Below, piece after piece: positions 22,164 to 46,730 of a stretch of 64,000 nucleotides of DNA. The translations under genes and the position numbers were made by a program. The notes below the pieces were generated by a model, which saw only the letters and a list, made by a program, of their open reading frames with translations, was not told where the DNA came from and made no database searches. Where the stretch lies: the NCBI GenBank assembly GCA_016187515.1, contig JACPJN010000007.1, positions 4,046 through 68,045 of the forward strand, read 5' to 3'. Origin of the DNA: Candidatus Uhrbacteria bacterium (GTDB lineage Bacteria; Patescibacteriota; Patescibacteriia; GWA2-47-26). Within the stretch, counting starts at the first letter, position 1, and each line of letters starts with the position of its first letter.

Positions 22164-22395
22164 AGAGGACAGCGTGGAGAGGGGGTTTCTCAAGCGATAA
22201 CACAGCCGCGGGGAGAGCGCGTGTGTAAGCTCAAAGAAACCCAGGAATATCAGTTACTCCACCCCCTTTCCCTGTCCGACCACGGACAAAATCTGGTACT
22301 CATACGAGAGCGTCAGGCAGAGCAAACGCGTGCTACGCTATTGGGTTAAAAATATAGGACGAAAATCTCACGGCCGTGAGATTTTCGTCCTTTTT
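22164..22395 (+). ncRNA. candidate ~230-nt sRNA (unknown family)
   Basis: Bounded by the promoter above and a perfect 34-bp hairpin ggacgaaaatctcacggccgtgagattttcgtcc + TTTTT (22357-22395); long-range complementarity ggacagcgtggagaggggg / ccaccccctttccctgtcc; no convincing ORF. Confidence 0.3.
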
Positions 22396-22488
22396 GTTAA
22401 ACGTGAAAATTGCAAAAACCACTCAATCAAAAACTCAATTCTATTAAAAAACCCGCACCCGAAGGCGCGGAATGCAGGTTGGGTCTCC

Positions 22489-22689
22489 TCACTCCAACCC
22501 CTCCAACGAACGAATTATCTGACGCTCCATCTTTTGCCTGTCTACAAACGCTGCCATTACCGTGCGTTCGTACTCGTGCAGTTGTGCATCGCATCGCTTC
22601 AAGGCACGATGGAGTAACACCCACTGCCGTACGCATAGCACTGCAAGTACAGGAATGATCACGCACCAGAGGACAATGGCTTCGAGCAT
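22489..22689 (-). CDS. small membrane protein (hypothetical, 66 aa)
   Basis: SD AGGAGGTGAGTC before ATG; one TM helix; followed by hairpin+T6 terminator at ~22440-22470. Confidence 0.45.
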   Translation of the reverse strand: MLEAIVLWCVIIPVLAVLCVRQWVLLHRALKRCDAQLHEYERTVMAAFVDRQKMERQIIRSLEGLE

Positions 22690-22692
22690 GAC

Positions 22693-23010
22693 TCACCTCC
22701 TAAATCGTGAAAGGTACCACATTGAAAATCCGGGATCACGCCACTCGATCCAGCGGAGCATGCGATGAAGTACTACTCCCATCGCGACCATACCGAGTAA
22801 TGGCCCGAAACTTCGGAGTGCTCCGGTGTCCGCGTAGTCATAGAGGGAGGCAAAAAAGCCAAAACCCAGCAGGAGCACTTTCGGAACATGTCCTCCCCAC
22901 CGATTCATGAACCGATGCGCGGCTCGATCGCGAGCATATTTGTCCACTGCCCAGATAAACAAAATGATAAATAATGGAAACAGGATGAATGTATGCGTGA
23001 TATTGTCCAA
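22693..23010 (-). CDS. membrane protein (hypothetical, 105 aa, TTG start)
   Basis: ORF-track start is TTG; AGGAGG 6 nt upstream; two or three TM helices; co-oriented with downstream 66-aa gene. Confidence 0.45.
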   Translation of the reverse strand: MDNITHTFILFPLFIILFIWAVDKYARDRAAHRFMNRWGGHVPKVLLLGFGFFASLYDYADTGALRSFGPLLGMVAMGVVLHRMLRWIEWRDPGFSMWYLSRFRR

Positions 23011-23059
23011 GGAACACCTCCTACTCCCATCCTACCATAAACAAAAATAAGGGCAAGCG

Positions 23060-23170
23060 CCCTTTCAAATTCTCCCCCCTTAGGGTAAGGGGAGGTTGGG
23101 AGGGGTTACGAACCGTGCAAAGCTCATAACCCACCCTCGCCCTCCCTTATCTTAAGGGAGGGAATTCCAT
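23060..23170. repeat. REP-like palindromic element pair
   Basis: cccccccttagggtaaggggaggttgggaggggttacgaa...cccaccctcgccctcccttatcttaagggaggg. Confidence 0.7.
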
Positions 23171-23180
23171 TATATTGTTG

Positions 23181-25019
23181 CTACACCTTCTCTGCAATTT
23201 CCTTCCTCACCCTCTTCACAAATGCCGCAAGGGTCATCACGGGCTGACGCTGCTGTCCGCGGATGCGGACGGTGAGTTTCTGGAGTGATTTTTCTTTATC
23301 ACCAATAATCAGCATGTAAGGAATTTTTTGCTTCTCGGCTTTGCGGATCTTATAGCCCACCGTATCCGCGCCATCATCCACTTCCACGCGGATCCCCGCT
23401 TCCGCAAGCTGCTTACCCAGTTTTTGTGCTCCGACACGATGCGCTTCCCCGACGGTTCCGATATAGACCTGCACCGGCGAGAGCCAAACCGGAAACGCGC
23501 CGGCAAAGTGCTCAATCAAAATCCCTATGAAGCGCTCGAGCGAACCGTAAATCACACGGTGAATCGCAACCGGCGTTTTCCTGGAACCGTCTTGCGCGGT
23601 GTACTCCAGTTTAAATCGCCGCGGTTGCTGGAAATCAAGTTGAATAGTGCCCATCTGCCACTGCCGCCCGAGCGCGTCATTCATTAAAATATCTACCTTC
23701 GGCCCATAGAACGCGCCATCCCCTTCCTTTATGGTATAGGGCTTACCGCTCTCCTTTAGAATACGCGTCAGCTGCGCCTCGGCCTTGTTCCAGGTGGCAA
23801 TGTCACCCATAAAAATCTCCGGACGCGTTCCGAGTCGGAGTGAGTACTCCAGCTTGAAAATTGCGTAAAATCGTTTGACAATTTCCAGGATTCGCTCATA
23901 TTCTTGGGGAATTTGATCTTCCATCACAAAGCAATGCGCATCATCTTGGCGAAATTCACGCACCCGCAAAAGACCGTTCAGCGTCCCGGACAATTCAAAC
24001 CGATGCAGCATATCCGTATCCGACAGGCGTAGCGGCAATTCCCGATAGCTGCGTCCTTTTGATCCGAAGACCACCATGGCGTTTGGACAATTCATTGCTT
24101 TTATTCCATAGAGCTCACCCTCTACCTCCACTTCACCTTCCCCCTGATCCGCGACAAACATGTCCTGCCAATAATGCTCAAAATGGCCGGAAATCTCATA
24201 GAGTTCCTTTTTATTAAGCAGCGGTGATACAATTTCTTGGTATCCGTATTTTATATGTTCATGCCTCCAAAAATTTATAAGCTCGTTGTAGATGATCACC
24301 CCCTTAGGCAGCCAGTAAGGCATACCCGGGGCGGTGTGGTGAAACATGAATAATTCAAGTTCGGATCCCAATTTCTTATGGTCACGCTTGGCCACCTCTT
24401 CAAGAAAACGCAGATGCGCGGCAAGCGCCTCGGAATTTTCAAACGCCAGTCCGTAAATCCTTTGCAGCTGGGGATTTTTCTGATCACCGCGCCAGTACGC
24501 GCCGGAGATTTTATCAAGCTTAAAAGAATCCGCGCTAATCTCGGAGGTGTTTTCCACATGCCCGCCACGGCAAAGGTCAATGAATTTTCCGGTTTTGTAC
24601 AAAGTGACCGTAGTTGGCTTAGAGCTAAGGGCTAAGGGCTTAGAGTTCGCTGCTCTATGCTCTACGCCCTCTGCCCTTTGCAGTTCAGTAGTCCCGAATT
24701 TCTCAATATCTTCAATCAACTCTATTTTGAACGGCTGCTTCCGTTCTGCAAAAAATTTCTTTGCCTCTCCGGTCGACATCTCCATCCGTTCAAACGCCAG
24801 TTTTTCCTTTACCAGCGCCCGCATGCGTTTTTCCAACTTTCCCAAATCCTCCGGTGTCAGCGTCCGCGGCAGTAAAAAATCATAATAAAATCCATGTTCA
24901 ATCACCGGCCCAACTCCCAACTGGGCTTGGGGAAACATTTCTAAAACCGCACTTGCCAAAATATGGGCAAGCGAGTGACGGATATGCTCAAGTTTGTTCT
25001 TATCTTCTGACATAAACAT
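23181..25019 (-). CDS. thrS: threonyl-tRNA synthetase (no TGS domain), with in-frame simple-repeat insertion
   Basis: Start near MFMSEDKNKLEHIRHSLAHIL; class II motifs, anticodon-binding C-terminus; insert AEGVEHRAANSKPLALSSKP encoded by gcttagagctaagggctaagggcttagag repeats at 24615-24680. Confidence 0.9.
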   Translation of the reverse strand: MFMSEDKNKLEHIRHSLAHILASAVLEMFPQAQLGVGPVIEHGFYYDFLLPRTLTPEDLGKLEKRMRALVKEKLAFERMEMSTGEAKKFFAERKQPFKIELIEDIEKFGTTELQRAEGVEHRAANSKPLALSSKPTTVTLYKTGKFIDLCRGGHVENTSEISADSFKLDKISGAYWRGDQKNPQLQRIYGLAFENSEALAAHLRFLEEVAKRDHKKLGSELELFMFHHTAPGMPYWLPKGVIIYNELINFWRHEHIKYGYQEIVSPLLNKKELYEISGHFEHYWQDMFVADQGEGEVEVEGELYGIKAMNCPNAMVVFGSKGRSYRELPLRLSDTDMLHRFELSGTLNGLLRVREFRQDDAHCFVMEDQIPQEYERILEIVKRFYAIFKLEYSLRLGTRPEIFMGDIATWNKAEAQLTRILKESGKPYTIKEGDGAFYGPKVDILMNDALGRQWQMGTIQLDFQQPRRFKLEYTAQDGSRKTPVAIHRVIYGSLERFIGILIEHFAGAFPVWLSPVQVYIGTVGEAHRVGAQKLGKQLAEAGIRVEVDDGADTVGYKIRKAEKQKIPYMLIIGDKEKSLQKLTVRIRGQQRQPVMTLAAFVKRVRKEIAEKV

Positions 25020-25178
25020 TCTCTTCCTCCTGCGATAAACGCACCCGGCGGTGTGGTAAGGCAATTTTGGGAGCGTCTGCAGTCCTCTCTGCAATTTTAC
25101 CTATGCTCCGTAAATTGCAGAGGGACGGAAGAGGACCCTTGTATTGCCGATCCACACTGCCGGGCGCGTTTTGAGCTC

Positions 25179-26354
25179 CTATTTCTTCACCACCATTTTT
25201 ATCCGATCTGGTATCGTCGGAATCCGCTTTTGCCAAGAAGGAAAAAGCCGCACCGCCACCGCCTCGACCGCGTCAAAACTTTCGAGATATCGCGCGGCTT
25301 CCTCCGGAAGCATTCCGGCCACTTTGACCGGCTCCAAAACCGGACTCCCCGCGGAAAGACGCGCCTGGCCATCCGCGTAGACCTGCAACTGCACCGCTCC
25401 GGTTTTGGCATTCACGCTTTTAATCCGAATGACCAGGGTATCTTTATTAAAACTGATGAGCTCCCGGTCAGAGGGAACATTCGCCAAGACCTTCTCGAGC
25501 GCCAATTTTTCCAGCGCTTCCTTATCGTAAGCGAGCAACTTAACTTTCACTTTGCCAACTACTCCAAGGGTCTGACGCGCTTCGCCCTTTTCCCCGTCAA
25601 AAGTGACTTCCAAAATTTCGCTGTCCGCCGTAACCTCGCCGGCTTGCGCCTCTGGCGCCTTTGAAAATTCTTCTTTGGCGCGGGCAATGGCTTTTTCCAC
25701 CACGGCGTTGCGCGCGCGCTCCAGGTCGTCGGCGACGACCACGCGCACTTTTTGAGCGCCGCCCATCATCGCGGCCTTACTTTCCCCGTAAATCAACAGC
25801 TGCTTTGCCGCGTTCAGTCCGGGAATGGTAAAGCTTCCGGGTGCGATGTCTCCGGAAGGGCCCGTCTGATCCGCGGCCACCGCGACCGCCGTGCTCCCTT
25901 TGGCCGGAACCAGCACGCGTTCTTGAGTACGAAACAAAACTCCGGCGGAGGAAAGAAATCGCGTGGTGGCCACCAAGGGTTGGGGGGCGCTCGTGGTATT
26001 TATAACGGTGATTGTCCCCTCGGACCGGCCTTGCTTTTCCGTAGTTCCGCTGGCTTCAAACTGCAATTCCTCCTCCATGATTTTTTCCTCATAGACCCCG
26101 GCAACCGCCGAAGAATAATCCAGTCCGTCATTTTCCGCCGCCGCTGGCCTCGCAGTGGCCAAAAATTCCGCGCTCCGCAGTTCGTCCTTGGGCGTGATAA
26201 TAATCGTGGCCTTGGCCACCGAGAAAAACACAATAATTCCCACCAAAAGCACCGTCAGCACCACAAAGGAGATCGCAATGCGGCGATAGATCATGGAAAG
26301 CGAGGGGAGGGCTGACTGTCTATGCTTAGTCATATAAATCGCTAATAACATCAT
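25179..26354 (-). CDS. hypothetical membrane-anchored protein
   Basis: 391 aa; single N-terminal TM (ISFVVLTVLLVGIIVFF); no recognisable domain. Confidence 0.45.
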   Translation of the reverse strand: MMLLAIYMTKHRQSALPSLSMIYRRIAISFVVLTVLLVGIIVFFSVAKATIIITPKDELRSAEFLATARPAAAENDGLDYSSAVAGVYEEKIMEEELQFEASGTTEKQGRSEGTITVINTTSAPQPLVATTRFLSSAGVLFRTQERVLVPAKGSTAVAVAADQTGPSGDIAPGSFTIPGLNAAKQLLIYGESKAAMMGGAQKVRVVVADDLERARNAVVEKAIARAKEEFSKAPEAQAGEVTADSEILEVTFDGEKGEARQTLGVVGKVKVKLLAYDKEALEKLALEKVLANVPSDRELISFNKDTLVIRIKSVNAKTGAVQLQVYADGQARLSAGSPVLEPVKVAGMLPEEAARYLESFDAVEAVAVRLFPSWQKRIPTIPDRIKMVVKK

Positions 26355-26401
26355 TATAACACACTTGAAGCTGCCGCGTACTTTTCGCTATCCACAAGCG
26401 T

Positions 26402-27421: not shown

Positions 27422-27518
27422 ACCTTTATATGATACCTACCCGGATCCCGATTGTCAAAAACTTGACAAACTTGAAAATATGTGTTAAACAGTAAGTACG
27501 GGAAAGGAAAGCGCTAAA

Positions 27519-27980
27519 ATGATCCAAACAATGGCCCCCATACCGAAGATCTGGCGGGCCATGATGGTCCGCCCGCAAGCGCCGAAAGGAGGACCCCAAC
27601 CCGGGGTCTTGCAAGTTCTTCTTTACCATACGGACGATTCACCCGGTCTGCTTCCAAAACCACCGGAGGGAGTGCGTGTGAAACTGAATTTTGCGGATGG
27701 TCTGGGAAGCGAAGTATGGCAGGAGCAGCGGCGCCGGCTTGTACATGGTACAATCTTGACGCTCGTTCTGAAAACATGGCGCGAGCTTTCCCTGGGAGGA
27801 GAACTACTGACCAGCTGCGCAAAGCCAGAGATTCTCCAAGTGCTCGCGGGTTTTTCGCTCCTGGTTCCGAACTTGCCTGAGCTGCGGTTCACTCGTGAAC
27901 CGCATCCGGAAAGCATTGTGTTTCTGCCGGAGGCACAGACCTCACTGGGGGTACAACCTCCAAAGGAGAAACCTCCATGA
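27519..27980 (+). CDS. hypothetical protein (153 aa)
   Basis: Convergent with 28047..29189 gene with a shared hairpin+T-run between them; alternative minus-strand ORFs overlap, so the call is tentative. Confidence 0.3.
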   Translation: MIQTMAPIPKIWRAMMVRPQAPKGGPQPGVLQVLLYHTDDSPGLLPKPPEGVRVKLNFADGLGSEVWQEQRRRLVHGTILTLVLKTWRELSLGGELLTSCAKPEILQVLAGFSLLVPNLPELRFTREPHPESIVFLPEAQTSLGVQPPKEKPP

Positions 27981-34936: not shown

Positions 34937-37447
34937 TTAATCTCGCACCTTAGCATCAAACCTCTCTTTTAGCATGCGAGACAATTTTATGTGCACCTTC
35001 TCCGCTTCTTGCGCCGTCAGCGTTCGCTCGGCCGAGGCATACTGGATATGAAACGCCAGACTACGGTGTCCCTCCGGCACGCCCTTGCCTGCATACTGAT
35101 CAAACAGTTCCACGCCGGCAATGAGCGGATCAAGTTTGGCAATCGCGCCATGAATCACGGCGTACTCTTTTTCTTTGCTCACTACAAAGGCAATGTCACG
35201 CTTGACCGGCGGATACGCCGGAGGCGGCTCATACGCTCGGCCTTGACCAATCAGCGGATAGACCACGCGCATTTCCCACTCTAAAAACGCAACCCGCTGC
35301 TCTATGCCATAAGCCCTAAGCAATTGTGGATGAAGTTCACCCACTACCCCCAGTATATCACGCCCGGATTTTACGAGCAATACGCGAGAGGGGTGGTAAT
35401 GCTTGACCCACGGCGCCTTAATTGACCCGACTTTTTCATATCCAAAATTTGGCAAGGCCAAAACTTCCGCCAAATGTTCGGCCACGCCTTTTGCCGCGTA
35501 AAAATGCGCACCCTCGCGTTCTTCGCGCCCGGCACTCAACACAATGAGCTTTTGTCGTTCGTCGGGTAATTCTCCCGCACGAGGATGATATTCGCTCGAC
35601 AATTCAAACAATTTCAACTCATCCCGCGTTTTTTCATTTTCCGCCACAGCTTTGAGGAGCGAAATTCCCAGCCACGGCCGCATGTGCGCCATCTCGGAGG
35701 TCAAAGGATTGGCAAGCGCCAGCGCGTCGCGGTCCGGATCAAACCCGGCGCGCGCAACACTATCGCGAGCAACAAATGAATAGGTGTAAAGTTCGGTAAA
35801 TCCTGCGCCGCGCAACGCCTCCTTCACTTCGTGTTCGTGCGTAAATTGCACACTTTGTATCTCGAAAGGAAGATCGCCTTGTGGAAGCACACCGGGAATC
35901 CTGTGATATCCATACATCCGCGCGACTTCCTCGGCAATATCCGCAACCCCGTCCGCTTCAACCTCGCGCCAATACGGAAATTTTACGCCCCACTTTTTTG
36001 CGCCTCCCGATACGGAAAACCCAAGCGCGGTTAAATATTTTTTCATTTGCGGCGCCGGAATTTCCACGCCGATTTTCTTCGCCACCTCCACAGGCGCGAC
36101 TTTCACCGTTTTTCCTCCCCTTAAGGTAAGGGGAGGCGAGGAGGGGTTATGCCGATCCACCATCCCCACCACCTTCCCTCCGGCAATCTCGGCGGTCAAC
36201 TCCATCAATCGCGCCGCCGCAAACTCCGGCAACGGCACAGGCAATCCTTTATTAAACCGCACAGAACTCGCCGAGGTAAGCCCAATCTGATGCTCGCCGC
36301 GGCGAATCGTGAGCGCATCAAAATTCGCAATCTCGTACACGATCCGCGTTGTCCCCGCGCGCACCCCGGTTTCTTCTCCGCCCATGATGCCGGCAATCGC
36401 CACTGGCCGCTGGGCATCAGCAATCACTAGAATATTTTCATCAAGTTCGTAGGTATTCCCATCTAATGCTAAAACCTTTTCCCCTTTCTTCCCCATCCGC
36501 ACCACTATTTTTTTCCGTGTCCCATCCGTTTTATTTCCGTGTCTTTCTGTGTTATGAAGACGCTCAGCATCAAAAGCATGACACGGCTGCCCATACTCTA
36601 GTAGTACATAATTCGTGATATCCACGATATTATTTATCGGCCGCACCCCAGAGGCCATAAGCCGCCGCTGTATCCACCACGGCGACGGCCCCACCTTCAC
36701 GCCTTCCATCACCACCGCCATGTACCGCGGACACAACTTTGGCACTTCAACTTTAACGTCCAACCAATCTCCTCCCCTTAGGTTAAGGGGAGGTCGGGAG
36801 GGGTTATGACCAATTTTCAATTTTACATTTTCAATTTTACATTTTACATTGAATATCGCCCCCACCTCGCGCGCCAACCCAACTATGCCCATAGCGTCCG
36901 GACGATTGGTTGTTATTTCCACCTCAAGTACCACATCATCTAATCCAAGTGCTCTAGCCACTGGCACACCCACGCGCGCGCCCGTGGCAGTCAAATCTAA
37001 AATCTCCCGCTCTTTGTGTGGAAACATTTCATATAGCCCAATCTCATTGGCCGCGCAAATCATGCCTTCACTTTTGACGCCACGAATTTCTGTCGGTGTT
37101 AATTCCATTGGTTCACCTTCTCCATGCCAGCGCACTTTTGCTCCCGGCAGAGCTACCGCCACCAACATTCCTTCTTTAATATTCGTTCCCCCACACACAA
37201 TAGTTCGTGGTCGTTCGTCTTTATTGTTCGTGGTCGTTCGTGCTATACGCAGCTTATCGGCATTTGGATGCGGCTCTATTTCCACAATCTTCCCGACTAC
37301 AATCGCCGGATCCAGTCCTACCACCATTGGCCGCATTCGCTCCACGGAAAACGCATGAAGCGACAAGCGCTCCGCCACTTCCTCTGGGCGGGCTTTAAGT
37401 CCTGGCAAAAACTCACGCAGCCAATTATAGGAAACCAATAGGTTCAT
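34937..37447 (-). CDS. pheT: phenylalanyl-tRNA synthetase beta subunit, with multiple in-frame repeat insertions
   Basis: 836 aa; tRNA-binding N-domain, B3/4, B5, FDX-ACB; inserts from REP elements (PPLNLRGG at ~36110-36150; SSPPLTLRGG at ~36770-36808) and tandem repeats (36815-36850, 37195-37250). Confidence 0.9.
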   Translation of the reverse strand: MNLLVSYNWLREFLPGLKARPEEVAERLSLHAFSVERMRPMVVGLDPAIVVGKIVEIEPHPNADKLRIARTTTNNKDERPRTIVCGGTNIKEGMLVAVALPGAKVRWHGEGEPMELTPTEIRGVKSEGMICAANEIGLYEMFPHKEREILDLTATGARVGVPVARALGLDDVVLEVEITTNRPDAMGIVGLAREVGAIFNVKCKIENVKLKIGHNPSRPPLNLRGGDWLDVKVEVPKLCPRYMAVVMEGVKVGPSPWWIQRRLMASGVRPINNIVDITNYVLLEYGQPCHAFDAERLHNTERHGNKTDGTRKKIVVRMGKKGEKVLALDGNTYELDENILVIADAQRPVAIAGIMGGEETGVRAGTTRIVYEIANFDALTIRRGEHQIGLTSASSVRFNKGLPVPLPEFAAARLMELTAEIAGGKVVGMVDRHNPSSPPLTLRGGKTVKVAPVEVAKKIGVEIPAPQMKKYLTALGFSVSGGAKKWGVKFPYWREVEADGVADIAEEVARMYGYHRIPGVLPQGDLPFEIQSVQFTHEHEVKEALRGAGFTELYTYSFVARDSVARAGFDPDRDALALANPLTSEMAHMRPWLGISLLKAVAENEKTRDELKLFELSSEYHPRAGELPDERQKLIVLSAGREEREGAHFYAAKGVAEHLAEVLALPNFGYEKVGSIKAPWVKHYHPSRVLLVKSGRDILGVVGELHPQLLRAYGIEQRVAFLEWEMRVVYPLIGQGRAYEPPPAYPPVKRDIAFVVSKEKEYAVIHGAIAKLDPLIAGVELFDQYAGKGVPEGHRSLAFHIQYASAERTLTAQEAEKVHIKLSRMLKERFDAKVRD

Positions 37448-37812: not shown

Positions 37813-38952
37813 CTAAAATTGTTCCAAAAAATTTAAGTCATTATTATACAACACCCTGATATCATCAATGCGCAAACCCTGCTTCATCATGTAGCTCCGC
37901 TCCACTCCAAACCCAAACGCAAATCCACTCCACACTTTTGGATCAAGTCCGCCTGCTTTTAAAACATTGGGGTGTACCATGCCGGCGCCAGCAAGCTCAA
38001 GCCAGCCGGACTTACAAAGTCTGCACTTCTCCCCTCCCCTTAAGGTAAGGGGAGGTTGGGAGGGGTTATGAACATAACCAGTGCCATGACACACGCCACA
38101 TGATACATCTACTTCAAACGACGGTTCGGTAAATCGAAAGTGAAACGGCCGCAAACGAATTCTACGCTCCGGCCCAAAAAAGACGCGCGCGAAATATTCA
38201 AGCGTTCCCTTCAAATGCGTCACTGCGACATTCCGATCAATGAGGAGTCCTTCAAACTGATGAAACATCGGCACATGCGACACATCTGATTGCCTACGAT
38301 AACACTTAGCCAGGTTGATCATCCGAATCGGCGGCTTGCGTCGTTCCATCTCGCGCACTTGGCCATTGGAAGTATGCGGTGTAAGCACCATTTTTCCAAA
38401 CTTTGGATGCTCAATGTAATTTCCGCGTTGTTCCGCGATATGCTCTAGCGAGACGTTCCGCGTGGTTCCGCGACCTACAAAATAGGTCTCCCACTCATCC
38501 CGCGCTGGATGTCCCTTCGGCATGTTCAACGCCTCAAACGCATAATAATCCCAATCTACCTCCGGATACCGCATCCGATAAAATCCCAACTGCGCGAAAA
38601 TCCGGGTAATCTCCTCAATCGCCTGGGTCGTAATATGCAAATGCCCCAGCGGCGGCCGCGTCCCCGGAAGCGTCACATCCAGTTTCTCTTGCTCCGCCAG
38701 CTTGCCCAGCGCCACACCTTCCAACTCTTTTACGTGTTGTTGTAGTGCTGTCATGATGTACTGCTTTAGTGTATTCAACTCCTGTCCCGCTTTTTTCCGC
38801 TCCTCGCCTTTCATTTCCGCAAGTTCGGAAAATAATCCGGTCATGGTTCCTTTTCTTCCCAAAAATTCAATACGCACAGCCTCAAGCCCGGCCGCGTCAC
38901 GCGCCGCCTCAATCTTCTTTTTCACGATGTTCTCAATTTCCTTAAGGTCCAT
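37813..38952 (-). CDS. pheS: phenylalanyl-tRNA synthetase alpha subunit, with in-frame REP-like and tandem-repeat insertions
   Basis: 379 aa; class II catalytic core; insert HNPSQPPLTLRGGEKCRLC from REP at 38030-38072; gttccgcg tandem repeats at 38400-38470. Confidence 0.9.
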   Translation of the reverse strand: MDLKEIENIVKKKIEAARDAAGLEAVRIEFLGRKGTMTGLFSELAEMKGEERKKAGQELNTLKQYIMTALQQHVKELEGVALGKLAEQEKLDVTLPGTRPPLGHLHITTQAIEEITRIFAQLGFYRMRYPEVDWDYYAFEALNMPKGHPARDEWETYFVGRGTTRNVSLEHIAEQRGNYIEHPKFGKMVLTPHTSNGQVREMERRKPPIRMINLAKCYRRQSDVSHVPMFHQFEGLLIDRNVAVTHLKGTLEYFARVFFGPERRIRLRPFHFRFTEPSFEVDVSCGVCHGTGYVHNPSQPPLTLRGGEKCRLCKSGWLELAGAGMVHPNVLKAGGLDPKVWSGFAFGFGVERSYMMKQGLRIDDIRVLYNNDLNFLEQF

Positions 38953-38964
38953 ACAACAACTTTT

Positions 38965-39005
38965 TCTCCCCCTTAGGCTAAGGGGGAGTTAGAGGGGGTT
39001 ACGAA
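38965..39005. repeat. REP-like palindromic element
   Basis: ctcccccttaggctaagggggagttagagggggttacgaa. Confidence 0.7.
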
Positions 39006-39116
39006 ACTAAATTATACCCTCCCCCACATTCCCTCCATCATACACGATTACACTTGACAAAACAACTCCGCCATGCGACAATACACATACCTGTCAGAAA
39101 ACCACGGAGGAACGCC

Positions 39117-39647: not shown

Positions 39648-39797
39648 CCAACTCGCGCGGACTCTCACCGGTTCGCACCTTTTTTTCTATGGGACTATTG
39701 CCGGGACTGTTGCCGAATGTGCTCTCGTAGCGAAAAGCGCGCCCGCCCCTTCGACATCCAACTCCGGCTATGCTTCCTCTGGCGGCCATTTTCTCCC

Positions 39798-39843
39798 GCC
39801 CCGCCCGCGCGCTTCCTGCGCCGGCCGGGGTTTCTTTTTTATT
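39798..39843 (+). terminator. cassette terminator module (copy A)
   Basis: ccccgcccgcgcgcttcctgcgccggccggggtttctttttt; near-identical copies at 40893-40938 and 41744-41788, each followed by att(a/g)acgcaccaccat. Confidence 0.65.
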
Positions 39844-39995: not shown

Positions 39996-40031
39996 TGTCC
40001 CAAAATCTCACGGCCGTGAGATTTTGGGACA
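39996..40031. repeat. 36-bp perfect palindrome TGTCCCAAAATCTCACGGCCGTGAGATTTTGGGACA (copy 1)
   Basis: Exact inverted repeat followed by aatttttgttttg; identical copies at 40991, 41807, 42915, 46695. Confidence 0.85.
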
Positions 40032-40089: not shown

Positions 40090-40118
40090 TTGACAATCAA
40101 ACAAAATCATGCTATTAT
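40090..40118 (+). promoter_or_regulatory. cassette B promoter TTGACA-N17-TATTAT
   Basis: TTGACA 40090-40095, TATTAT 40113-40118; embedded in a ~110-bp module (39996-40125) almost identical to 40991-41125. Confidence 0.65.
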
Positions 40119-40194: not shown

Positions 40195-40851
40195 ATGCTC
40201 GTTCATTGGTTGTTCAAGGACGTCTTCATGATGGTGGCAATCGGTTTCATCGCGGTGGTCGCGCTCACCATCATCCTACATGCGGTGATGCGACCCATCC
40301 TGCGGAAGCTCACACTTGGCGACTACGAGAAATTCCTCCACAAGCCGAGCAACTATGTGGTGCAGGAGTATCCCTCTGCGTCCCACGGTGGCGGCGCGCT
40401 CAACAGGGCTGCAGTGAGACGACATGCCGAACGTTGGGCTAAGCTCGGCAACGAATGGGGACTCGCCATGGTGGCCTGCGTGGCGATCATCGCTGCAGTG
40501 ATGATCTTCGGCATCCACACGGCGAGCCAGAATTCCAATCCCCTGGAGGTGATCACGCCATACCTCAACTGGATTGGTGTGTGGTTCTTCCTTGCCATCG
40601 CCTGCCTGGTGCCGCACAAGATCTGTCTGACCATCGCGCGGTGGTACGAAAACGGCGCCGAGAACGGGAGGTTGCCGCCCCTGCCCGGCGCCCCCGAGAA
40701 CTCGCTGGCTCGGATCTCAATATCGGTCAAGAACGATCCCGATCCTCTCCCCTATGCGATCAAGGACATCAACCAGTTCGTCGCGATGGTGGTGGAGGGA
40801 CCACAATTCTCGTGGTGGCGGTACCAGCTTCGTCGGATGTTTTGTCGGTAG
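40195..40851 (+). CDS. membrane protein (hypothetical, ~3 TM), cassette B
   Basis: 218 aa; SD AAAGAGG; TM helices; no known domain. Confidence 0.5.
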   Translation: MLVHWLFKDVFMMVAIGFIAVVALTIILHAVMRPILRKLTLGDYEKFLHKPSNYVVQEYPSASHGGGALNRAAVRRHAERWAKLGNEWGLAMVACVAIIAAVMIFGIHTASQNSNPLEVITPYLNWIGVWFFLAIACLVPHKICLTIARWYENGAENGRLPPLPGAPENSLARISISVKNDPDPLPYAIKDINQFVAMVVEGPQFSWWRYQLRRMFCR

Positions 40852-40892
40852 TGGACCGTACCTACATGTGTCCCACCGGCGAAACTCTCTGT

Positions 40893-40938
40893 TCCGCCCC
40901 GCCCGCGCGCTTCCTGCGCCGGCCGGGGCTTCTTTTTT
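40893..40938 (+). terminator. cassette terminator module (copy B)
   Basis: ccgccccgcccgcgcgcttcctgcgccggccggggcttctttttt. Confidence 0.65.
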
Positions 40939-40990
40939 ATGTGCAGGTTGTGTGTATATGAGCTTTTCCCATTTGCCACCCGTTTGCCAC

Positions 40991-41026
40991 CCGCATCCGA
41001 TTGTCCCAAAATCTCACGGCCGTGAG
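40991..41026. repeat. 36-bp perfect palindrome (copy 2)
   Basis: Identical to copy 1. Confidence 0.85.
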
Positions 41027-41092
41027 ATTTTGGGACAATTTTTGTTTTGCGATCCTCGTCAAGTGGATAACTCCCCCCTTTCTACATCCCTC

Positions 41093-41121
41093 TTGACAAT
41101 CAAGCGATTATATGCCATTAT
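41093..41121 (+). promoter_or_regulatory. cassette C promoter TTGACA-N17-CATTAT
   Basis: TTGACA 41093-41098; -10 41116-41121. Confidence 0.6.
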
Positions 41122-41162
41122 TAAACTAGGCAACCCCGCCTGAAAGTGAAAGTGAGGATACC

Positions 41163-41723
41163 ATGCAGCGAACCTTTGTTCTTTTCGTCTTTCTTGGCGC
41201 CGCCTGCGGCGGCAAGGCAGGCCCGACGCGTCCCGAGCTCGGCAGTACCGAATGCTATGCTGCCCAAGCGCTCCCTCAAATCCGGGGCGATCGGCCTCTG
41301 CACTGCGCGTTCCAGGATCAGCTGCCTGCCGAGGTGTCTCACCTCGTCGCGATGGCACGCCTGAGGATTGAGTGCGATCCGGAAAAAGTGATGGCCGCGG
41401 TGTCGTTTAACCACCACTTGCCGGAAGAAGAACCGAAATTCATTGAGGTGGCATGCAATGATGACTACCCAACCGAGCTCGTCTGCGGATGGACTACCAA
41501 CTTCCGCATCACCGCCCACGACTTCGGCGAAGGAACAACTCGGGTAATCATCCGAAGCGACTGCCCTTTGCCCGAATACGGAGGCGTCCGCTGCAGCGAT
41601 CAGATTCCCCCGCATGCAATATTCACCTCAACAGAAAGACATTGCGAGACGGGTGACGCGCTGCTTATCAATCCGGTCAGCTCCAACCAGGAAATTACGG
41701 TCTGGGCCGACCCGATCGACTGA
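41163..41723 (+). CDS. Cys-rich secreted/lipoprotein-like protein (hypothetical), cassette C
   Basis: 186 aa; signal peptide MQRTFVLFVFLGAAC; at least 9 Cys; SD GAGGA. Confidence 0.5.
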   Translation: MQRTFVLFVFLGAACGGKAGPTRPELGSTECYAAQALPQIRGDRPLHCAFQDQLPAEVSHLVAMARLRIECDPEKVMAAVSFNHHLPEEEPKFIEVACNDDYPTELVCGWTTNFRITAHDFGEGTTRVIIRSDCPLPEYGGVRCSDQIPPHAIFTSTERHCETGDALLINPVSSNQEITVWADPID

Positions 41724-41743
41724 TCGCTCCACCAACCCGTTCC

Positions 41744-41788
41744 CCCCCCGCCCGCGCGCGCCCACGCGCCGGCCGGGGTTTCTTTTTT
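41744..41788 (+). terminator. cassette terminator module (copy C)
   Basis: cccccccgcccgcgcgcgcccacgcgccggccggggtttctttttt. Confidence 0.65.
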
Positions 41789-41806
41789 ATTGACGCACCA
41801 CCATTC

Positions 41807-41842
41807 TGTCCCAAAATCTCACGGCCGTGAGATTTTGGGACA
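41807..41842. repeat. 36-bp perfect palindrome (copy 3)
   Basis: Identical sequence; between convergent cassette C and PaaX-like gene. Confidence 0.85.
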
Positions 41843-41941
41843 ACCTTTGTTTCTAGATCCTTTTCGAGATCCTCTTTCTTCCGCCCCTTTTTGTACCATC
41901 TAGTGCTCGATAATACTCAACCAACGCTTGATACTTTGGTA

Positions 41942-42649
41942 CTATTTTGACTTTCTCCTTTTCTGCTTCACTTTAAAATATGCACGCGGTGATAAATCAT
42001 AAATCTCACCATCTTCCTTCTGTCGCTGCATCTGCCGCCAAACCCGTATTACGCGCGGGCTGCATTTTTTACAGTCGGCTTCAATCAGCGCGTAATATCG
42101 GTGCAAGCCAAGGTACTTTAATAAGCCGTGTAGCGCTGGTTCGGGATTGTACTTTGTAACCCACACGGAAAACTGCCACATTTGAAATCCGCTTGCTTTA
42201 AGAAGTTTCCGTAAGTGATCGCGATGCTTTCGCAACCGTTCTGGAATATCAAAAATTACCACCCGCCAGGCGCGATCCCACTTTTGTTTGCGCTGATCTT
42301 CCATGTGCTGTATAAATCGTATCCGCAGTATTTCGTACTTACCCTTGGCAGTCAAACGATACAACTGCTCCTCTCCTTCTTGCACTAACTCGATGTAATG
42401 TTCCTGCTTTAAATAGTGGATACGCCGCATCAGCCGCCTATATTCTCGTTTTCTGCGCGCGCGTTCACGTTCTATATAGGCCACTGGTCCAAAGCCGCCT
42501 AAACTCCAGCGTACATGCGATGGCACGTGGATACCTCCCCCCTTTAGATTTGTAGCCTGAAGTTCGAGCAATGCGATTTGTAACTCTTGCAGTTGTAATC
42601 GAGTACTCATAGATATGAGACCGCTGAACAATTGATTATTCGTGTTCAT
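41942..42649 (-). CDS. PaaX-family transcriptional regulator (winged HTH + PaaX_C-like domain)
   Basis: 235 aa; YRLTAKGKYEIL resembles PaaX wHTH FYSLTxKG; WDRAWRVVIFDIPERLRKHRDHLRKLLKASGFQMWQFSVWV matches PaaX_C WDGxW...LxxxGFGxLxxGVW; family match is inference from motif recall, no search run. Confidence 0.55.
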   Translation of the reverse strand: MNTNNQLFSGLISMSTRLQLQELQIALLELQATNLKGGGIHVPSHVRWSLGGFGPVAYIERERARRKREYRRLMRRIHYLKQEHYIELVQEGEEQLYRLTAKGKYEILRIRFIQHMEDQRKQKWDRAWRVVIFDIPERLRKHRDHLRKLLKASGFQMWQFSVWVTKYNPEPALHGLLKYLGLHRYYALIEADCKKCSPRVIRVWRQMQRQKEDGEIYDLSPRAYFKVKQKRRKSK

Positions 42650-42914
42650 TCGTAAGGCCGCCTGGCCAGGGCAGCGCAGGAAACCGGCGATTCCGGCGGC
42701 CGTCTATTCGCCTGCCCCGCACCAAGCCGCAGTCGGCGCCTCTTTAATACCCTAGGGATAGCCGCAGGCGGCATCCGTGGCTCGCCCAGCCATTCACCAC
42801 TGCCTTTCTTCGGGCTTTGGTGCTGGGGTGGATATTCGTGTGAACCTGCGCAGGTGTTAGTTCTTCAACATTCTCAGATATGCGCTTCAAAGGGACATTC
42901 AGCATCCGGCTTTT

Positions 42915-42950
42915 TGTCCCAAAATCTCACGGCCGTGAGATTTTGGGACA
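42915..42950. repeat. 36-bp perfect palindrome (copy 4)
   Basis: Identical; upstream (gene sense) of PaaX-like gene, beyond a ~260-nt GC-rich leader. Confidence 0.85.
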
Positions 42951-43044
42951 AAAGCGCACGGTTACGTTTTTGTAATTTTATGTACAATTTTTTTCGAAAT
43001 CACTCCGCGAAATCACTCCGGAGATTTCAATTCTACGATGCATA

Positions 43045-44211
43045 TCACCGCAGTGCATTCTTGACTACTTCCACAATTCTCCCCCCATACCTCCCCACAT
43101 CGCGGACGCTGACCGCGGCCACCAGCAGAATCAGCAAGACAAAACCCGCGGCGTGCACCCAGCCCTCAACGCGCCGGGCCACCGGCCGGCCGCGCAACTT
43201 TTCAATCAAAATAAACAGGATGCGTCCGCCATCCAGCGCCGGAAACGGGAGCACATTTAGAATTGCCAGGTTAATCGAAAGGATGGCCATAAACTGAAGC
43301 AGATTTACTAATCCTTGCCGCGCCGCCTGTCCGGTTAACACCGCGATGCCAACCGGACCGGTAAGATCCGCGCCAACCGGCCTACCTAAAACCGCGTCCC
43401 GGATCAGTTCCGCGAAAGCTACCACAATCGTTTTTGAAAGCACCGCAGTAATTTCCACCGCTTTAGGGACCGCGAGCCACAGCGGATAGCGGACGGTTCC
43501 CACATCCGCAATCATCACGCCGATTCCCGGAGCTTTGGTTTTTTCTAAAATAATCGGCGTAACTTCTGCCTGTCGTAGCTGACCTTGGGCCTGAAATTCA
43601 ACGCGAATGGGTTGGCTTAAAAACTCGGCCGCCACATTTTTAACCGCCTCCGCTTTCTCAAGCGGCTGGCCATTTAGCGAAATAATCCGCGCGCCAGGGG
43701 CAATTCCGGCGCGCTCTGCCGGGCCACCGGGCAGCACTCCCATTACCTCCACATGCCGATCTTGTATCCGCGCGTGCGCGGAAATGTCATCTTCAATTAC
43801 TTGCGGAAAACCAAGGGCAAATCCTCCCGAAATCAAGACGACCGCGAGTAACGCATTCATGAGCACTCCGGCGGCAATAATCCAGACCCGTCGGTAAGCC
43901 GGCAGTCCGGCAAAACTATCCCCGGACTCGATTTCTTCTCCGGATTCGCCTTTGATTCTCACAAATCCGCCAAACGGAAGCGCGTTGATGGAGTAAACAG
44001 TCCCTCCCTCGCGCGCCTTAAAATCTTTCGGATTGCCCCAGACGATCTTACGACGCCCGTTCACCCGCTGAATGCCTACTACCCGCGGGGGAAATCCAAA
44101 TCCAAATTCATCTACCCGCAAACCCGCGCGCTTGGCGGTAATAAAATGCCCGAACTCGTGGACAAAAACTAAAACGGAGAGGACGAGGAGGAAAATGAGG
44201 AGAGTGAGCAT
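43045..44211 (-). CDS. rseP: RIP metalloprotease RseP (site-2 protease, M50 family)
   Basis: HEFGHFITAK HExxH in first TM, PDZ domain, LDGG motif; probable start MLTLLIFLLV. Confidence 0.85.
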   Translation of the reverse strand: MLTLLIFLLVLSVLVFVHEFGHFITAKRAGLRVDEFGFGFPPRVVGIQRVNGRRKIVWGNPKDFKAREGGTVYSINALPFGGFVRIKGESGEEIESGDSFAGLPAYRRVWIIAAGVLMNALLAVVLISGGFALGFPQVIEDDISAHARIQDRHVEVMGVLPGGPAERAGIAPGARIISLNGQPLEKAEAVKNVAAEFLSQPIRVEFQAQGQLRQAEVTPIILEKTKAPGIGVMIADVGTVRYPLWLAVPKAVEITAVLSKTIVVAFAELIRDAVLGRPVGADLTGPVGIAVLTGQAARQGLVNLLQFMAILSINLAILNVLPFPALDGGRILFILIEKLRGRPVARRVEGWVHAAGFVLLILLVAAVSVRDVGRYGGRIVEVVKNALR

Positions 44212-44328
44212 AGAATATAGTTGTGGGTGTAGTTGTCGCAGCCCGTACCGTCTACGGTGTAGTCCTACGGCCAATTGACAACACCTTATGACGAAACCGA
44301 TACGAGCAGCGAAACCGCCACCGTATAA

Positions 44329-45153
44329 CTACAGCCTTGCGGCTTTAAGATTAATGGACATTCCGAGCCATTTTTCCGCCAGTTCCTGAAATTTCGGCGT
44401 TTTTTTGCTGACATAGAATTCGTGTTTCGGAGCACTCATAACTCCCCTAACCCCTCTTACCTTAAGAGGGGAATCCGATTGATCGTTCCTCCCCTTAAGG
44501 TAAGGGGAGGCAGGAGGGGTTATGAACTGTTGAACTTCACGCGCCACCGTCTCCGCCGAATCCACGAGCTGCACACGATTGCCCACAATATCAGCAATCA
44601 CGCCTTTAAGCCAGGGGTAATGCGTACACCCTAAAATAAGCGTATCAACCTGCGCGCGCTGAAACGGCGCAAGATACTGCTCCGCCACTTCATAGGTCGT
44701 CGGATGCACCAAGCGCCCAGCTTCAACCAGCGGAACGAACAAGGGACATTCCCGGGCATTAATGCCGCGGCACCATTTTTGATACGCGCCGCTTTGCACA
44801 GTGGTCCGCGTGCCAATTACTCCAATCCGGCCATTATGTGTCCGGCGCAGCGCTTCGCGCACGGCCGGAGTAATCACTTCAAAAATCGGCACGCTGGGAA
44901 ATTCCTTGCGCAACGCTAATCCCGACACCGCGGAGGCCGTATTGCAGCCCACCACAATCATTTGCGCTTTTTTCTTTAGTAAAAACTTCGCGTTTTGCAG
45001 CGCGTAGCCCGCCACGGTCTCCGGCGGCTTATTGCCGTACGGCGTTCGCGCCGTATCGCCAAAATAAATAATTTTCTCGCGGGGTAGCGCCGCCATTACG
45101 GCTTTCGCCACGGTCAATCCGCCGAGTCCTGAATCGAAAATTCCGATTGTCAT
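44329..45153 (-). CDS. murI: glutamate racemase with in-frame REP-like insertions
   Basis: IGIFDSGLGGLTVAKAV, GCNTAS, GCTHYP motifs; inserts DSPLKVRG(VRG) encoded by REP copies at 44440-44528. Confidence 0.85.
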   Translation of the reverse strand: MTIGIFDSGLGGLTVAKAVMAALPREKIIYFGDTARTPYGNKPPETVAGYALQNAKFLLKKKAQMIVVGCNTASAVSGLALRKEFPSVPIFEVITPAVREALRRTHNGRIGVIGTRTTVQSGAYQKWCRGINARECPLFVPLVEAGRLVHPTTYEVAEQYLAPFQRAQVDTLILGCTHYPWLKGVIADIVGNRVQLVDSAETVAREVQQFITPPASPYLKGRNDQSDSPLKVRGVRGVMSAPKHEFYVSKKTPKFQELAEKWLGMSINLKAARL

Positions 45154-45950
45154 AGAACCCCAAGCCAAGAGCGAATAAATTGTTTTGTCTGCTTTGGACC
45201 GGAAACCGCAATGCACTTAACTCCAGTACGGCGCACGGCAAAGTCGTTGCCACCGGGAAATAACGCATCGCCGATAAATAACATCTGCCGTTTTGGAACA
45301 TGTAAATGTTTTTCAATCTGTCGTATCCCATAGGCCTTATCAATACCCTTTTTGGTCACATCAATGGAGGTATAACCCGCAGCACGAACTTCCAAGTTCG
45401 GTAAACGACGCTGCAGAGCGCGCGCGAGTTTCATTTTAATCTTTTTATTCCCTGCCAGCCACTGCTTTTTAAGTTCTACCCCGCGCTGACCTAAGGACGC
45501 GACAATTTCCTGTCCCAAAGCGGAAAAAGTCACTTGCGTGCCGCGATCTTCAATCACCGAGCCATAAACCTTCTTGGGATGCACATAACCAACTTCTCTG
45601 AATGCCTCTTGGAAAGCTTTGCGGATCGCCTGTTTTTCTCTTTTGGTAAGTTTCAATTCATACACCTTTTTCCATCCAGACGCGTAACGATAAAAAGCCG
45701 TGGCCGTGGTGGGAAACAGAAAAAGATTTCCCAGCAACTTTGTTGGCGCGCGCAAATGACCGATAAATTGACTTTTAAAAACGTCGTATTTGCCGCCGCC
45801 GATAACCGCCACTATTTTCTTTTTTAATAGTGCCTTAAGCAGTCCCGACATCTCTTTATCCATTGGGGATTTGGTCTCGGTAAGCGTCCCGTCCAAGTCA
45901 AACACAATAAGCGTTTGCTTGATTAGATCGGCATCTTGGCGGGCTTGCAT
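45150..45950 (-). CDS. HAD-superfamily hydrolase (IIB-like)
   Basis: Motif I LIVFDLDGTLTE, motif IV FIGDALFPGGND. Confidence 0.65.
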   Translation of the reverse strand: MQARQDADLIKQTLIVFDLDGTLTETKSPMDKEMSGLLKALLKKKIVAVIGGGKYDVFKSQFIGHLRAPTKLLGNLFLFPTTATAFYRYASGWKKVYELKLTKREKQAIRKAFQEAFREVGYVHPKKVYGSVIEDRGTQVTFSALGQEIVASLGQRGVELKKQWLAGNKKIKMKLARALQRRLPNLEVRAAGYTSIDVTKKGIDKAYGIRQIEKHLHVPKRQMLFIGDALFPGGNDFAVRRTGVKCIAVSGPKQTKQFIRSWLGVL

Positions 45951-46031
45951 ATAATAGTTTCCCATTATATACTATCTACATCAATTCGCCAATTCCATAA
46001 TTCATGCCTCATAATTCATAATTCACTCAAT

Positions 46032-46589
46032 ATGCCTACCTACCTTTGGATAATTCTCGCCGTCGCCGCCGTCCTAGTTCTTTGGGTCATTGCCATCTAT
46101 AATGGCCTGATAACTCGCCGAAACCGCGTGCAAGAGTCCTGGTCTGATATTGATGTTCAGCTAAAACGCCGCTATGATCTTATCCCCAACCTCATGGAAT
46201 CCGTCAAGGGATATATGCAACATGAGCGGGGCACGCTTGAAAAAGTTACTGCGGCGCGTACCGCGGCAATGGGCGCGAAAACCATGGCCGAACATGCCAA
46301 ATCAGAAAACATGCTGACCGAAGCATTAAAATCCATTTTTGCCGTAGCGGAAAATTATCCGGATCTCAAGGCCTCGCAAAACTTCCTCCAGCTCCAAGAT
46401 GAACTTTCCGACACGGAGAACAAAATCCAAGCCGCCCGACGGTTCTATAACGGGAATGTCATGAACTTTAACACGCGCATCCAAAGTGTGCCCGCCAATC
46501 TCGTGGCCGGCATGTTCAGCTTCAAAACGCGAGAATTTTTTGAACTTTCCGAACCCGCCGCGCGCGAGGCGGTAAAAGTGCATTTTTGA
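46032..46589 (+). CDS. lemA: LemA family protein
   Basis: N-terminal TM then LemA signature region NRVQESWSDIDVQLKRRYDLIPNL...; terminator ccccgcccccacaaaggcgggtttttgttttt at 46630-46660. Confidence 0.8.
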   Translation: MPTYLWIILAVAAVLVLWVIAIYNGLITRRNRVQESWSDIDVQLKRRYDLIPNLMESVKGYMQHERGTLEKVTAARTAAMGAKTMAEHAKSENMLTEALKSIFAVAENYPDLKASQNFLQLQDELSDTENKIQAARRFYNGNVMNFNTRIQSVPANLVAGMFSFKTREFFELSEPAAREAVKVHF

Positions 46590-46694
46590 TTCGCGAATGA
46601 TTACAAATTACTCACGAATGTATACGAATCCCCGCCCCCACAAAGGCGGGTTTTTGTTTTTCTGGAAACTACTGTCTGAAACGACCGCCTCTCC

Positions 46695-46730
46695 TGTCCC
46701 AAAATCTCACGGCCGTGAGATTTTGGGACA
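46695..46730. repeat. 36-bp perfect palindrome (copy 5), with extended imperfect arms 46683-46740
   Basis: Between convergent lemA and 46914..47525 gene. Confidence 0.85.

Follow-up and report, generated by a model that had tools for sequence, protein, structure and literature searches.

Long perfect palindromes bracketing a mini-PaaX gene in Candidatus Uhrbacteria and its relatives as candidate cognate sites of the encoded protein

The closest characterized relative of the protein considered here is a repressor, PaaX, known from the phenylacetate catabolon of Escherichia coli and Pseudomonas. In E. coli, PaaX binds TGATTC-N27-GAATCA and represses its own promoter (PMC9493321). Here we analyze a stretch of 64,000 nucleotides from Candidatus Uhrbacteria bacterium (contig JACPJN010000007.1, positions 4,046 to 68,045; hereafter the window), a member of the Candidate Phyla Radiation (CPR, or Patescibacteria), in which a 36-bp palindrome, TGTCCCAAAATCTCACGGCCGTGAGATTTTGGGACA, occurs in five exact copies, two of which bracket a gene for a short PaaX-type protein, termed mini-PaaX. 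From the comparisons described below we consider it probable that mini-PaaX binds these palindromes, and we lean towards the fuller proposal that they are the cognate sites of a dimeric mini-PaaX that would regulate its own gene by an operator-type mechanism. PaaX and mini-PaaX both combine a winged helix with a central Cas2-like (dimerization) domain, and in both cases the site contains inverted hexamers, which are 27 bp apart in the PaaX site and 24 bp apart here. Unlike PaaX, mini-PaaX has no PaaX_C ligand domain, which in PaaX binds phenylacetyl-CoA, and there are no paa genes nearby. Unlike the PaaX operator, the whole 36-50 bp is a perfect palindrome, spacer included, and sites are found on both sides of the gene, with solo sites between convergent genes and in coding DNA.

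Four other described systems resemble parts of this arrangement. Genes for the transposases associated with repetitive extragenic palindromic elements (REPs) of Enterobacteria and Pseudomonas, known as REP-associated tyrosine transposases (RAYTs), are reportedly flanked by their own REPs, in work of Nunvar from 2010 and of Bertels and Rainey from 2011. The likeness extends to short, hairpin-forming palindromic repeats in intergenic DNA, often past stop codons or between convergent genes, to a single-copy gene with repeats of its own type on either side, and to a separate repeat family for each paralogue. The present protein, however, is not an HUH/Y1 (IS200/IS605-like) transposase, the GTAG/CTAC signature is absent, some copies lie in coding DNA, the palindromes are perfect and have no loop, and their copy number is apparently in the tens rather than the hundreds. 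The Rickettsia palindromic elements are 100-150 bp long, and we know of no cognate protein gene for them. There, as in the MiaA and MnmA genes discussed below, palindromic DNA lies in frame within conserved genes and adds a surface peptide, whereas the elements described here, 30-36 bp in length, go together with one particular family of DNA-binding proteins. As regards Cas2 of CRISPR systems, the C-terminal domain of mini-PaaX is above the cas2 cut-off and superposes on Cas2, but it is fused to a winged helix, there is no cas1 or CRISPR array, and the repeats are spaced 805-3780 bp apart, whereas CRISPR spacers measure 25-50 bp. Intrinsic terminators, finally, have in common with the palindromes a stable stem-loop and, after three of the copies, a T-rich tract on one strand; they differ in that the palindromes are redundant with separate terminators, lack a T-run at two copies, are identical at dispersed sites and have a conserved center.

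The 36-bp palindrome family is real and non-random, as the 36-mer has no match in 100 dinucleotide-preserving shuffles of the window. Successive exact copies (Table 1) are separated by 1006, 805, 1108 and 3780 bp, with genes in between, and those at 41807 and 42915 bracket the mini-PaaX gene; the latter is extended to a 42-bp palindrome by flanking TTT/AAA (42912-42953). The 24-bp core, AAAATCTCACGGCCGTGAGATTTT, with CACGGCCGTG at its center, is also present at 22362-22385 inside a variant unit, whose four differences from the main family are all compensated, the outer hexamers still being self-complementary. A shorter palindrome within miaA, GTCAAATTCTCACGATCGTGAGAATTTGAC, has TCTCACG-NN-CGTGAGA in common with the main family, giving seven relatives in 64 kb, five of them within 6.7 kb. 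The initial annotation had counted the five exact copies correctly and had recognized the variant with changed arms around the same core; it placed one copy at 40991, 11 bases from its position at 41002, and missed the relative in miaA. It also made the link to a PaaX-like protein, without noticing that the palindromes bracket its gene or that the arrangement is CPR-wide. No match to Rfam was found at the palindromes at the gathering score or at E values up to 1, and the GTDB species-representative genomes hold no exact match to the 24-bp core.

The pairing of gene and palindrome is most evident from the relatives. Each of the four close orthologue loci (57-76% identity) has a lineage-specific palindrome on either side of the gene. 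In the syntenic locus L005 (76% identity), TGTCCCAAAATCTCACGACCGTGAGATTTTGGGACA ends 10 nt before the ATG and is found again 37 nt past the stop codon; in L001 (64%) a palindrome containing ..TAAAGTGCGATCGCACTTTATTGAC.. lies on both sides, its upstream copy overlapping a promoter match of the form TTGACT-16-TATAAT; in L006/L009 (57%) ATACCGAAATTGACACGATCGTGTCAATTTCGGTAT contains TTGACA-18-TATACT, and a second palindrome follows the gene although the next gene is convergent; and L008 (65%) has two copies of 40-42 bp. A wider sample of 47 loci across Patescibacteria was obtained from a scan of species-representative genomes. When these are combined with the orthologue loci, and a palindrome is counted if it is 28 bp or longer and no more than 250 nt away from either end of the gene, 18 of the 41 family genes have one nearby (7 on both sides), compared with 20 of the 393 other genes of the same loci (1 on both sides), and the density of palindromes is 0.90 per kb near the family gene versus 0.058 per kb elsewhere. 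The palindromes that adjoin family genes are 28-50 bp long. One locus (L052) has two paralogues 7 kb apart, each bracketed by its own distinct palindrome pair. In 14 of 15 loci the distance between the upstream palindrome and the start codon is 0-64 nt (0-25 nt in nine loci), and a sigma-70-like promoter match overlaps it in 5 of the 15, compared with 1.8 +/- 1.1 in shuffles; the overlapping matches in L001 and L006 score 11 of 12. The order palindrome, mini-PaaX gene, palindrome is a CPR-wide unit that is apparently undescribed, and no paper in the literature open to search mentions PaaX in connection with Cas2 or CPR.

The anatomy of the site was established from a metagenome scan for the core AAAATCTCACGRYCGTGAGATTTT, which gave 23 loci with many different outer arms, and the 23 distinct sites were aligned. 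The unit consists of 6 variable, 24 conserved and 6 variable bp, because the six outer positions on each side vary yet pair, and pairing is at background beyond 36 bp. All four types of Watson-Crick pair occur at the outer positions, which are changed on both sides in 11-13 of the 23 sequences and unpaired in 0-3 of them, depending on the position. Covariation scores 0.429 for these sites and 0.134 for shuffles, and not one of 500 shuffles reaches the observed value. Mismatches in the variable arms are G-T in eight cases and A-C in eight, and selection on the arms at the level of RNA was rejected on this ground, since G-U mismatches do not outnumber A-C. The window-type center is CACG-NN-CGTG flanked by A/T tracts, and this part, which would form the loop, is the most conserved; in the wider family the center is most often CGATCG between A/T tracts. 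This geometry fits a dimer in which the Cas2-like dimerization domain keeps the two winged helices some three helical turns apart. Within the family, protein conservation is much higher in the Cas2-like half than in the winged-helix half, which, given the conserved center and variable arms of the site, suggests that the conserved domain may contact the conserved center and the variable domain the variable arms.

The protein itself has 222 residues, and its start is probably at 42610 (MSTRLQ...). It matches the Pfam family PaaX_M (PF20803, 'PaaX protein central Cas2-like domain') with E=2e-19, and has no match to PF08223 (PaaX_C). With 35.5 bits it is far below the NCBIfam cut-off for PaaX (TIGR02277, 264.55), while its C-terminal domain passes the cas2 equivalog cut-off (34.8 versus 24.5). 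In an AlphaFold2 model (predicted local distance difference test score 77.8) the best Foldseek match is E. coli PaaX 8a39 (E=7e-4), followed by Cas2, and the C-terminal domain superposes on Cas2 of Streptococcus pyogenes with 2.9 A over 71 residues; the N-terminal part resembles the winged helices of MarR, PadR and AspA in profile comparison. Mini-PaaX is 100% identical to a Candidatus Uhrbacteria protein that is named 'CRISPR-associated endonuclease Cas2' at NCBI, because the C-terminal domain passes that cut-off and superposes on Cas2, and this public annotation is misleading. The gene's neighbors encode an M50 protease, a racemase, a HAD hydrolase and LemA, and no paa gene, cas1, other cas gene or CRISPR array was found near it. 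Searches of Pfam, NCBIfam, PADLOC and protein folds gave no HUH/Y1 or other known transposase domain, and PADLOC returned solely Cas2-domain matches, with no membership in a defense system. The Cas2-type Asp was considered as a sign of nuclease activity and set aside, as it is equally invariant in the longer, PaaX_C-bearing relatives and is uninformative on catalysis. The family is large, with 6,769 clusters at 50% identity (E up to 0.001), and neither relatives of mini-PaaX nor the core are present in the viral contigs of IMG/VR. As a separate observation, the upstream palindrome and the start codon are separated in the window by 304 nt of GC-rich DNA (42611-42914), compared with 10 nt in the syntenic L005; this leader has no Rfam match and its folding is not unusual (z = 0.28).

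Table 1. Positions of the palindromes and of the genes, terminators and promoter matches beside them (window coordinates, except for the row on relatives, which gives locus coordinates)
Feature	Position	Strand	Description
30-bp perfect palindrome	19318..19347		in frame within miaA, encoding ..PSNSHDRENL..
Variant copy	22356..22391		same 24-bp core; outer hexamers AGGACG/CGTCCT instead of TGTCCC/GGGACA
Terminator module 1	39796..39842	+	GC-rich hairpin and T-run, precedes copy 1; free energy (dG) -20.6 kcal/mol
Palindrome copy 1	39996..40031		exact match; ~150 nt past terminator-like hairpin, 58 nt 5' of the -35 box of open reading frame (ORF) 1
ORF1 promoter match	40090..40118	+	near-consensus sigma-70-like, TTGACA-17-TATTAT
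ORF1	40195..40851	+	218 aa, hydrophobic stretches, no family match; between copies 1 and 2
Terminator module 2	40894..40940	+	98% identical to module 1; after ORF1, before copy 2
Palindrome copy 2	41002..41037		exact match; 55 nt 5' of ORF2 -35 box
ORF2 promoter match	41093..41121	+	sigma-70-like, TTGACA-17-CATTAT
ORF2	41163..41723	+	186 aa, lipoprotein-like N-terminus, no family match; between copies 2 and 3
Terminator module 3	41744..41790	+	70% identical; after ORF2, before copy 3
Palindrome copy 3	41807..41842		exact match; 3' flank of mini-PaaX gene, 99 nt past its stop, 17 nt past ORF2 terminator
Mini-PaaX gene	41942..42610	-	222 aa; winged helix and Cas2-like PaaX_M domain, without PaaX_C
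Palindrome copy 4	42915..42950		exact match; 5' flank of mini-PaaX gene, 304 nt upstream of start 42610
Terminator-like hairpin	46631..46660	+	CCCGCCCCCACAAAGGCGGG plus TTTTTGTTTT; after LemA, 35 nt before copy 5
Palindrome copy 5	46695..46730		exact match; solo, between convergent LemA (+) and membrane-protein ORF (-)
miaA palindromes in relatives	L058 2296-2331; L083 3978-4009; L084 10814-10847; L057 10799-10832		same codon position as the window copy

The surroundings of the palindromes in the window bear on what they might do as RNA. An independent GC-rich hairpin with a T-run lies 17-150 nt upstream of four of the five exact copies. The T-run ATTTTTGTTTT follows copies 39996 and 41002 on the + strand only, copy 41807 is followed by a weak T-tract, ACCTTTGTTT, again on the + strand only, and neither strand has a T-run at 42915 or 46695; in a consensus scan the first three are terminator-like on the + strand, and there is neither a promoter match nor a T-run adjoining 46695, where both convergent genes have their own terminator-like hairpin. 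The variant at 22356 lies between a convergent cation-efflux gene (+) and an ORF on the - strand and has T-runs on both sides. The exact palindrome copies are not primary terminators, because four of the five follow a separate terminator and two lack a T-run. The earlier statements that some copies have a T-run on one side and 42915 has none, that 46695 and the variant sit between convergent genes, and that these are not ordinary, drifting terminators all hold. Copies 39996 and 41002 belong to a repeated module of GC-rich terminator, spacer, palindrome, T-rich tract and near-consensus promoter, of which the downstream part is 98% identical over 80 nt, and the left flank of copy 46695 (about 40 nt) is similar to that of copy 39996. 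The two genes that are each preceded by one such module, ORF1 and ORF2, are unrelated to each other, and ORF2 is an ORFan whose sole match among 5.8 billion proteins is itself. As to a conserved regulon, no homologues of ORF1, ORF2, LemA or the neighboring genes were found beside palindromes in any fetched locus. Elsewhere in the window, a 58-nt terminator-like segment is repeated exactly at 2960-3017 and 4093-4150, 1133 bp apart, which is the same pattern of shared terminator modules as around the palindrome cassettes.

Not all palindromes accompany a gene of the family. Solo copies occur kilobases from any family gene, as judged by hidden Markov model search, with positions past stop codons, between convergent genes or within reading frames. 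An in-frame copy within MnmA (L060) encodes FGKNLTIVRFLPK, and others are present in a Wzy-like gene (L071) and in an ORF of unknown function (L080). In the window the miaA copy (gene at 19179-20126) sits in an insertion of about 12 amino acids that is absent from MiaA proteins in the PDB and from most CPR MiaA proteins, and at the same codon position four related Uhrbacteria have different, CGATCG-centered palindromes of 32-36 bp. In these five diverged miaA genes, all with CGATCG-centered palindromes (30-36 bp), the palindromic character has been kept inside coding DNA while the sequence has diverged. For the 22356 copy there is no counterpart palindrome in the orthologous intergenic regions of L057, L083 and L084, no target-site duplication was seen by eye at any copy, and in one locus (L068) the two flanks are reverse complements of each other. 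The additional sites behave partly like dispersed repeats. A different intergenic palindrome of 34 bp at 9404-9437, GGATCTATTATAAGCGATCGCTTATAATAGCTCC, is CGATCG-centered, has TATAAT on both strands, is followed by the DnaA-box-like TTGTCCACA, and may be the site of another regulator.

We favor the interpretation of the palindromes as target sites because of the gene-palindrome pairing, the paralogue-specific pairs, the PaaX-like geometry and the position at start codons and promoter matches. The analysis shows that gene and palindrome are specifically paired, how the site is laid out, how the protein is folded and that the palindromes are redundant as terminators; that mini-PaaX binds them, in which direction it regulates and what the downstream and solo sites do is inferred. 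In such a mechanism a mini-PaaX dimer would lie along about 36 bp, with two winged helices reading the lineage-specific outer hexamers (TGTCCC/GGGACA here), 24 bp apart, and the conserved Cas2-like dimer placed over the conserved center. The bracketing sites would then lead to autoregulation, the upstream site occluding the promoter, and both sites together might allow looping or insulate the gene from neighboring transcription. The extra copies would be further binding sites that arose by duplication or spread, and those in the window (two upstream of the orphan-gene promoters and one between convergent genes) could silence or insulate these regions. The possibility that the palindrome is a dimeric operator tied to the PaaX-like protein, which had been offered as one of two options, is accordingly the better supported of the two, given the bracketing in relatives and a 6+24+6 layout like that of the PaaX site.

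Several observations weigh against this proposal. The upstream copy in the window is 304 nt from the start codon and has no good promoter overlapping it, and the cassette copies, about 75 nt ahead of the -35 boxes, are too distant to act by simple occlusion. Positions between convergent genes offer nothing to regulate, yet copy 46695, the 22356 variant and several solo copies from metagenomes are found there, and still others are in frame inside MiaA, MnmA and the Wzy-like gene. Most of the palindromes are perfect over 36-50 bp, and in L006/L009, L050, L052 and L053 the two flanks of one gene differ from each other, each being self-complementary. Perfect symmetry of this kind goes beyond what the half-sites of a dimer need and suggests a hairpin or cruciform constraint, or homogenization from arm to arm. 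Moreover, the core does not track the phylogeny of the protein, in that proteins of about 30% identity share the core of the window and orthologues of 57-65% identity have other cores, and a nearby palindrome is found in just about 44% of the distant family members.

These features leave some probability to a selfish system of the REP/RAYT kind, in which mobile, hairpin-forming palindromes would be nicked, copied or maintained by the Cas2-like/winged-helix protein that they bracket, and would insert anew into intergenic DNA and, in frame, into the loops of coding genes. The layout of a single-copy gene flanked by cognate palindromes, with a separate family for each paralogue, mirrors that of REP/RAYT, and five identical 36-bp copies, solo copies far from any family gene, the in-frame copies in MiaA (five lineages), MnmA and the Wzy-like gene, the maintenance of perfect palindromes by compensatory change, the mutually reverse complementary flanks of L068 and a domain above the NCBI cas2 model cut-off would all be consistent with it. 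Insertion polymorphism between orthologous intergenic regions had been named in the initial annotation as a sign of mobility, and the absence of the 22356 copy from the three relatives points that way. Against it, none of the copies shows a target-site duplication; the protein lacks an HUH/Y1 or any other known transposase domain, and its closest characterized relative is a repressor; the Cas2-type Asp, being equally conserved in PaaX_C-bearing relatives, is silent on catalysis; most of the 10-20 kb loci of relatives have the two flanking palindromes alone, so that copy number looks modest; the fixed codon position of the MiaA palindromes fits a single ancient insertion better than ongoing transposition; and neither the protein family nor the core was found in viral contigs. 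We regard a REP/RAYT-like system as unlikely. The solo and in-frame copies and the absence from orthologous regions point towards the REP/BIME-like option (BIME, bacterial interspersed mosaic element) of the initial annotation, whereas the type of protein, the lack of a visible target-site duplication and a copy number that looks modest point away from it. Equally doubtful in our judgment is the strongest form of such a system, a self-propagating CPR-wide element whose Cas2-like domain would be an active nuclease and would recognize the extruded 36-bp hairpin, copy it into new sites such as the miaA and mnmA loops and keep it symmetrical, an analogue of REP/RAYT derived from the CRISPR adaptation fold and using no known transposase.

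The palindromes might instead act independently of any protein, as RNA or DNA hairpins that serve as bidirectional terminators, stabilizers of mRNA 3' ends or insulators, with an incidental association with mini-PaaX. As RNA the 36-mer folds into a 16-bp stem with a 4-nt loop that is very stable (dG -26.8 kcal/mol, z = -6.9), and the terminator-like scores of copies 39996, 41002 and 41807, the T-runs on both sides of the variant, the many solo copies directly past stop codons or between convergent genes, and compensatory changes that fit a stem are what such hairpins would show. We consider this improbable, however, as the separate canonical terminators ahead of four of the five copies leave the palindromes redundant, no T-run is present at 42915, at 46695 or at most of the downstream copies in relatives, copies on the upstream side lie directly at start codons or across promoter matches, conservation is highest in the would-be loop CACG-NN-CGTG, which is the opposite of what is expected of a terminator, and there is no excess of G-T over A-C mismatches; a 9-fold enrichment at one gene family and paralogue-specific pairs would also go unexplained. 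A further reading takes the palindromes as boundaries of a cassette array, that is, as attC-like recombination sites that would capture orphan genes, each bringing its own promoter and terminator, beside a Cas2-like gene. In its favor, the first four exact copies mark off three units (1006, 805 and 1108 bp), two with unrelated orphan ORFs and the same promoter and terminator modules, and the third with the mini-PaaX gene. There is no recombinase in the cluster, though, an array is normally missing from the relatives, which have just the gene and its two palindromes, tandem duplication can account for the shared modules, and attC sites are imperfect and 57-141 bp long, all of which makes this reading very improbable. 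Two types of chromosomal site were also rejected. A site of the origin or terminus (parS/matS-like) does not agree with a GC skew that is negative throughout the window, with no switch, and for a parS/ParB-type site, which would cluster near the replication origin and be bound by a ParB-fold protein, the protein has the wrong fold, winged-helix/Cas2-like and not ParB, in addition to the same lack of a GC-skew switch.

In our assessment the unit is most likely a PaaX-type regulator with its operator, and there is a credible chance that it is something more unusual. To our knowledge CPR have very few recognizable regulators and there are almost no experimental genetics for them. In these mostly unculturable organisms, a gene with its own long, lineage-specific palindrome is a testable protein-DNA pair that can be read from sequence, and the family offers a natural set of orthogonal protein/site pairs. 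The 'Cas2' naming of mini-PaaX could lead to too many CRISPR components being counted in CPR. It is unusual that the palindromes are perfectly symmetrical, that they evolve by compensatory change and that a palindrome has survived at one miaA codon position in five diverged lineages. These features raise the question of whether a Cas2-fold protein acts on hairpin or cruciform DNA outside CRISPR, which bears on the origin of the CRISPR adaptation machinery.

Some further features of the window and of the fetched loci are of interest in their own right. Short-read contigs from several independent assemblies break exactly at palindromes (the starts of L001-L004, the end of L005, and L061, L072, L074 and L078), and such sites are therefore likely to be under-represented in fragmented metagenome-assembled genomes of CPR. 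A second and more abundant repeat family has units of about 45 nt, in which the hairpin CTCCCCTTAAGGTAAGGGGAG is followed by GGRGGGGTTAYGA, and is distributed over 8757-44529 of the window in at least 10-15 intergenic copies in both orientations (for example 9525-9565, 20175-20215, 36768-36812, 38030-38074 and 38963-39007), with further examples in L058 (1400-1520). It looks like a family of the REP or MITE (miniature inverted-repeat transposable element) type in its own right.

Across all of the fetched CPR loci, the density of perfect DnaA boxes, TTATCCACA, is about 25 times higher between genes than within them (0.18-0.30 versus 0.007 per kb), and in the window boxes with one mismatch number 25, compared with 10.7 expected. 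DnaA-like boxes are simply common in CPR intergenic DNA, and a link between them and the palindromes was rejected, as the 21-fold enrichment of perfect boxes near palindromes falls to 1.6-fold with an intergenic-only control. At 56041-56258 a 94-bp tandem repeat (2.3 copies, 99% identical) starts inside the 3' end of a tRNA (55986-56057) and may be an integration scar. Runs of 8-nt tandem repeats (of the TAACTTAA and GTTATTGA types) are found on both sides of the tmRNA gene (60668-61106, - strand), at 6503-6550 and 60206-63200, and a 45-bp palindrome at 61100-61144 abuts this gene.

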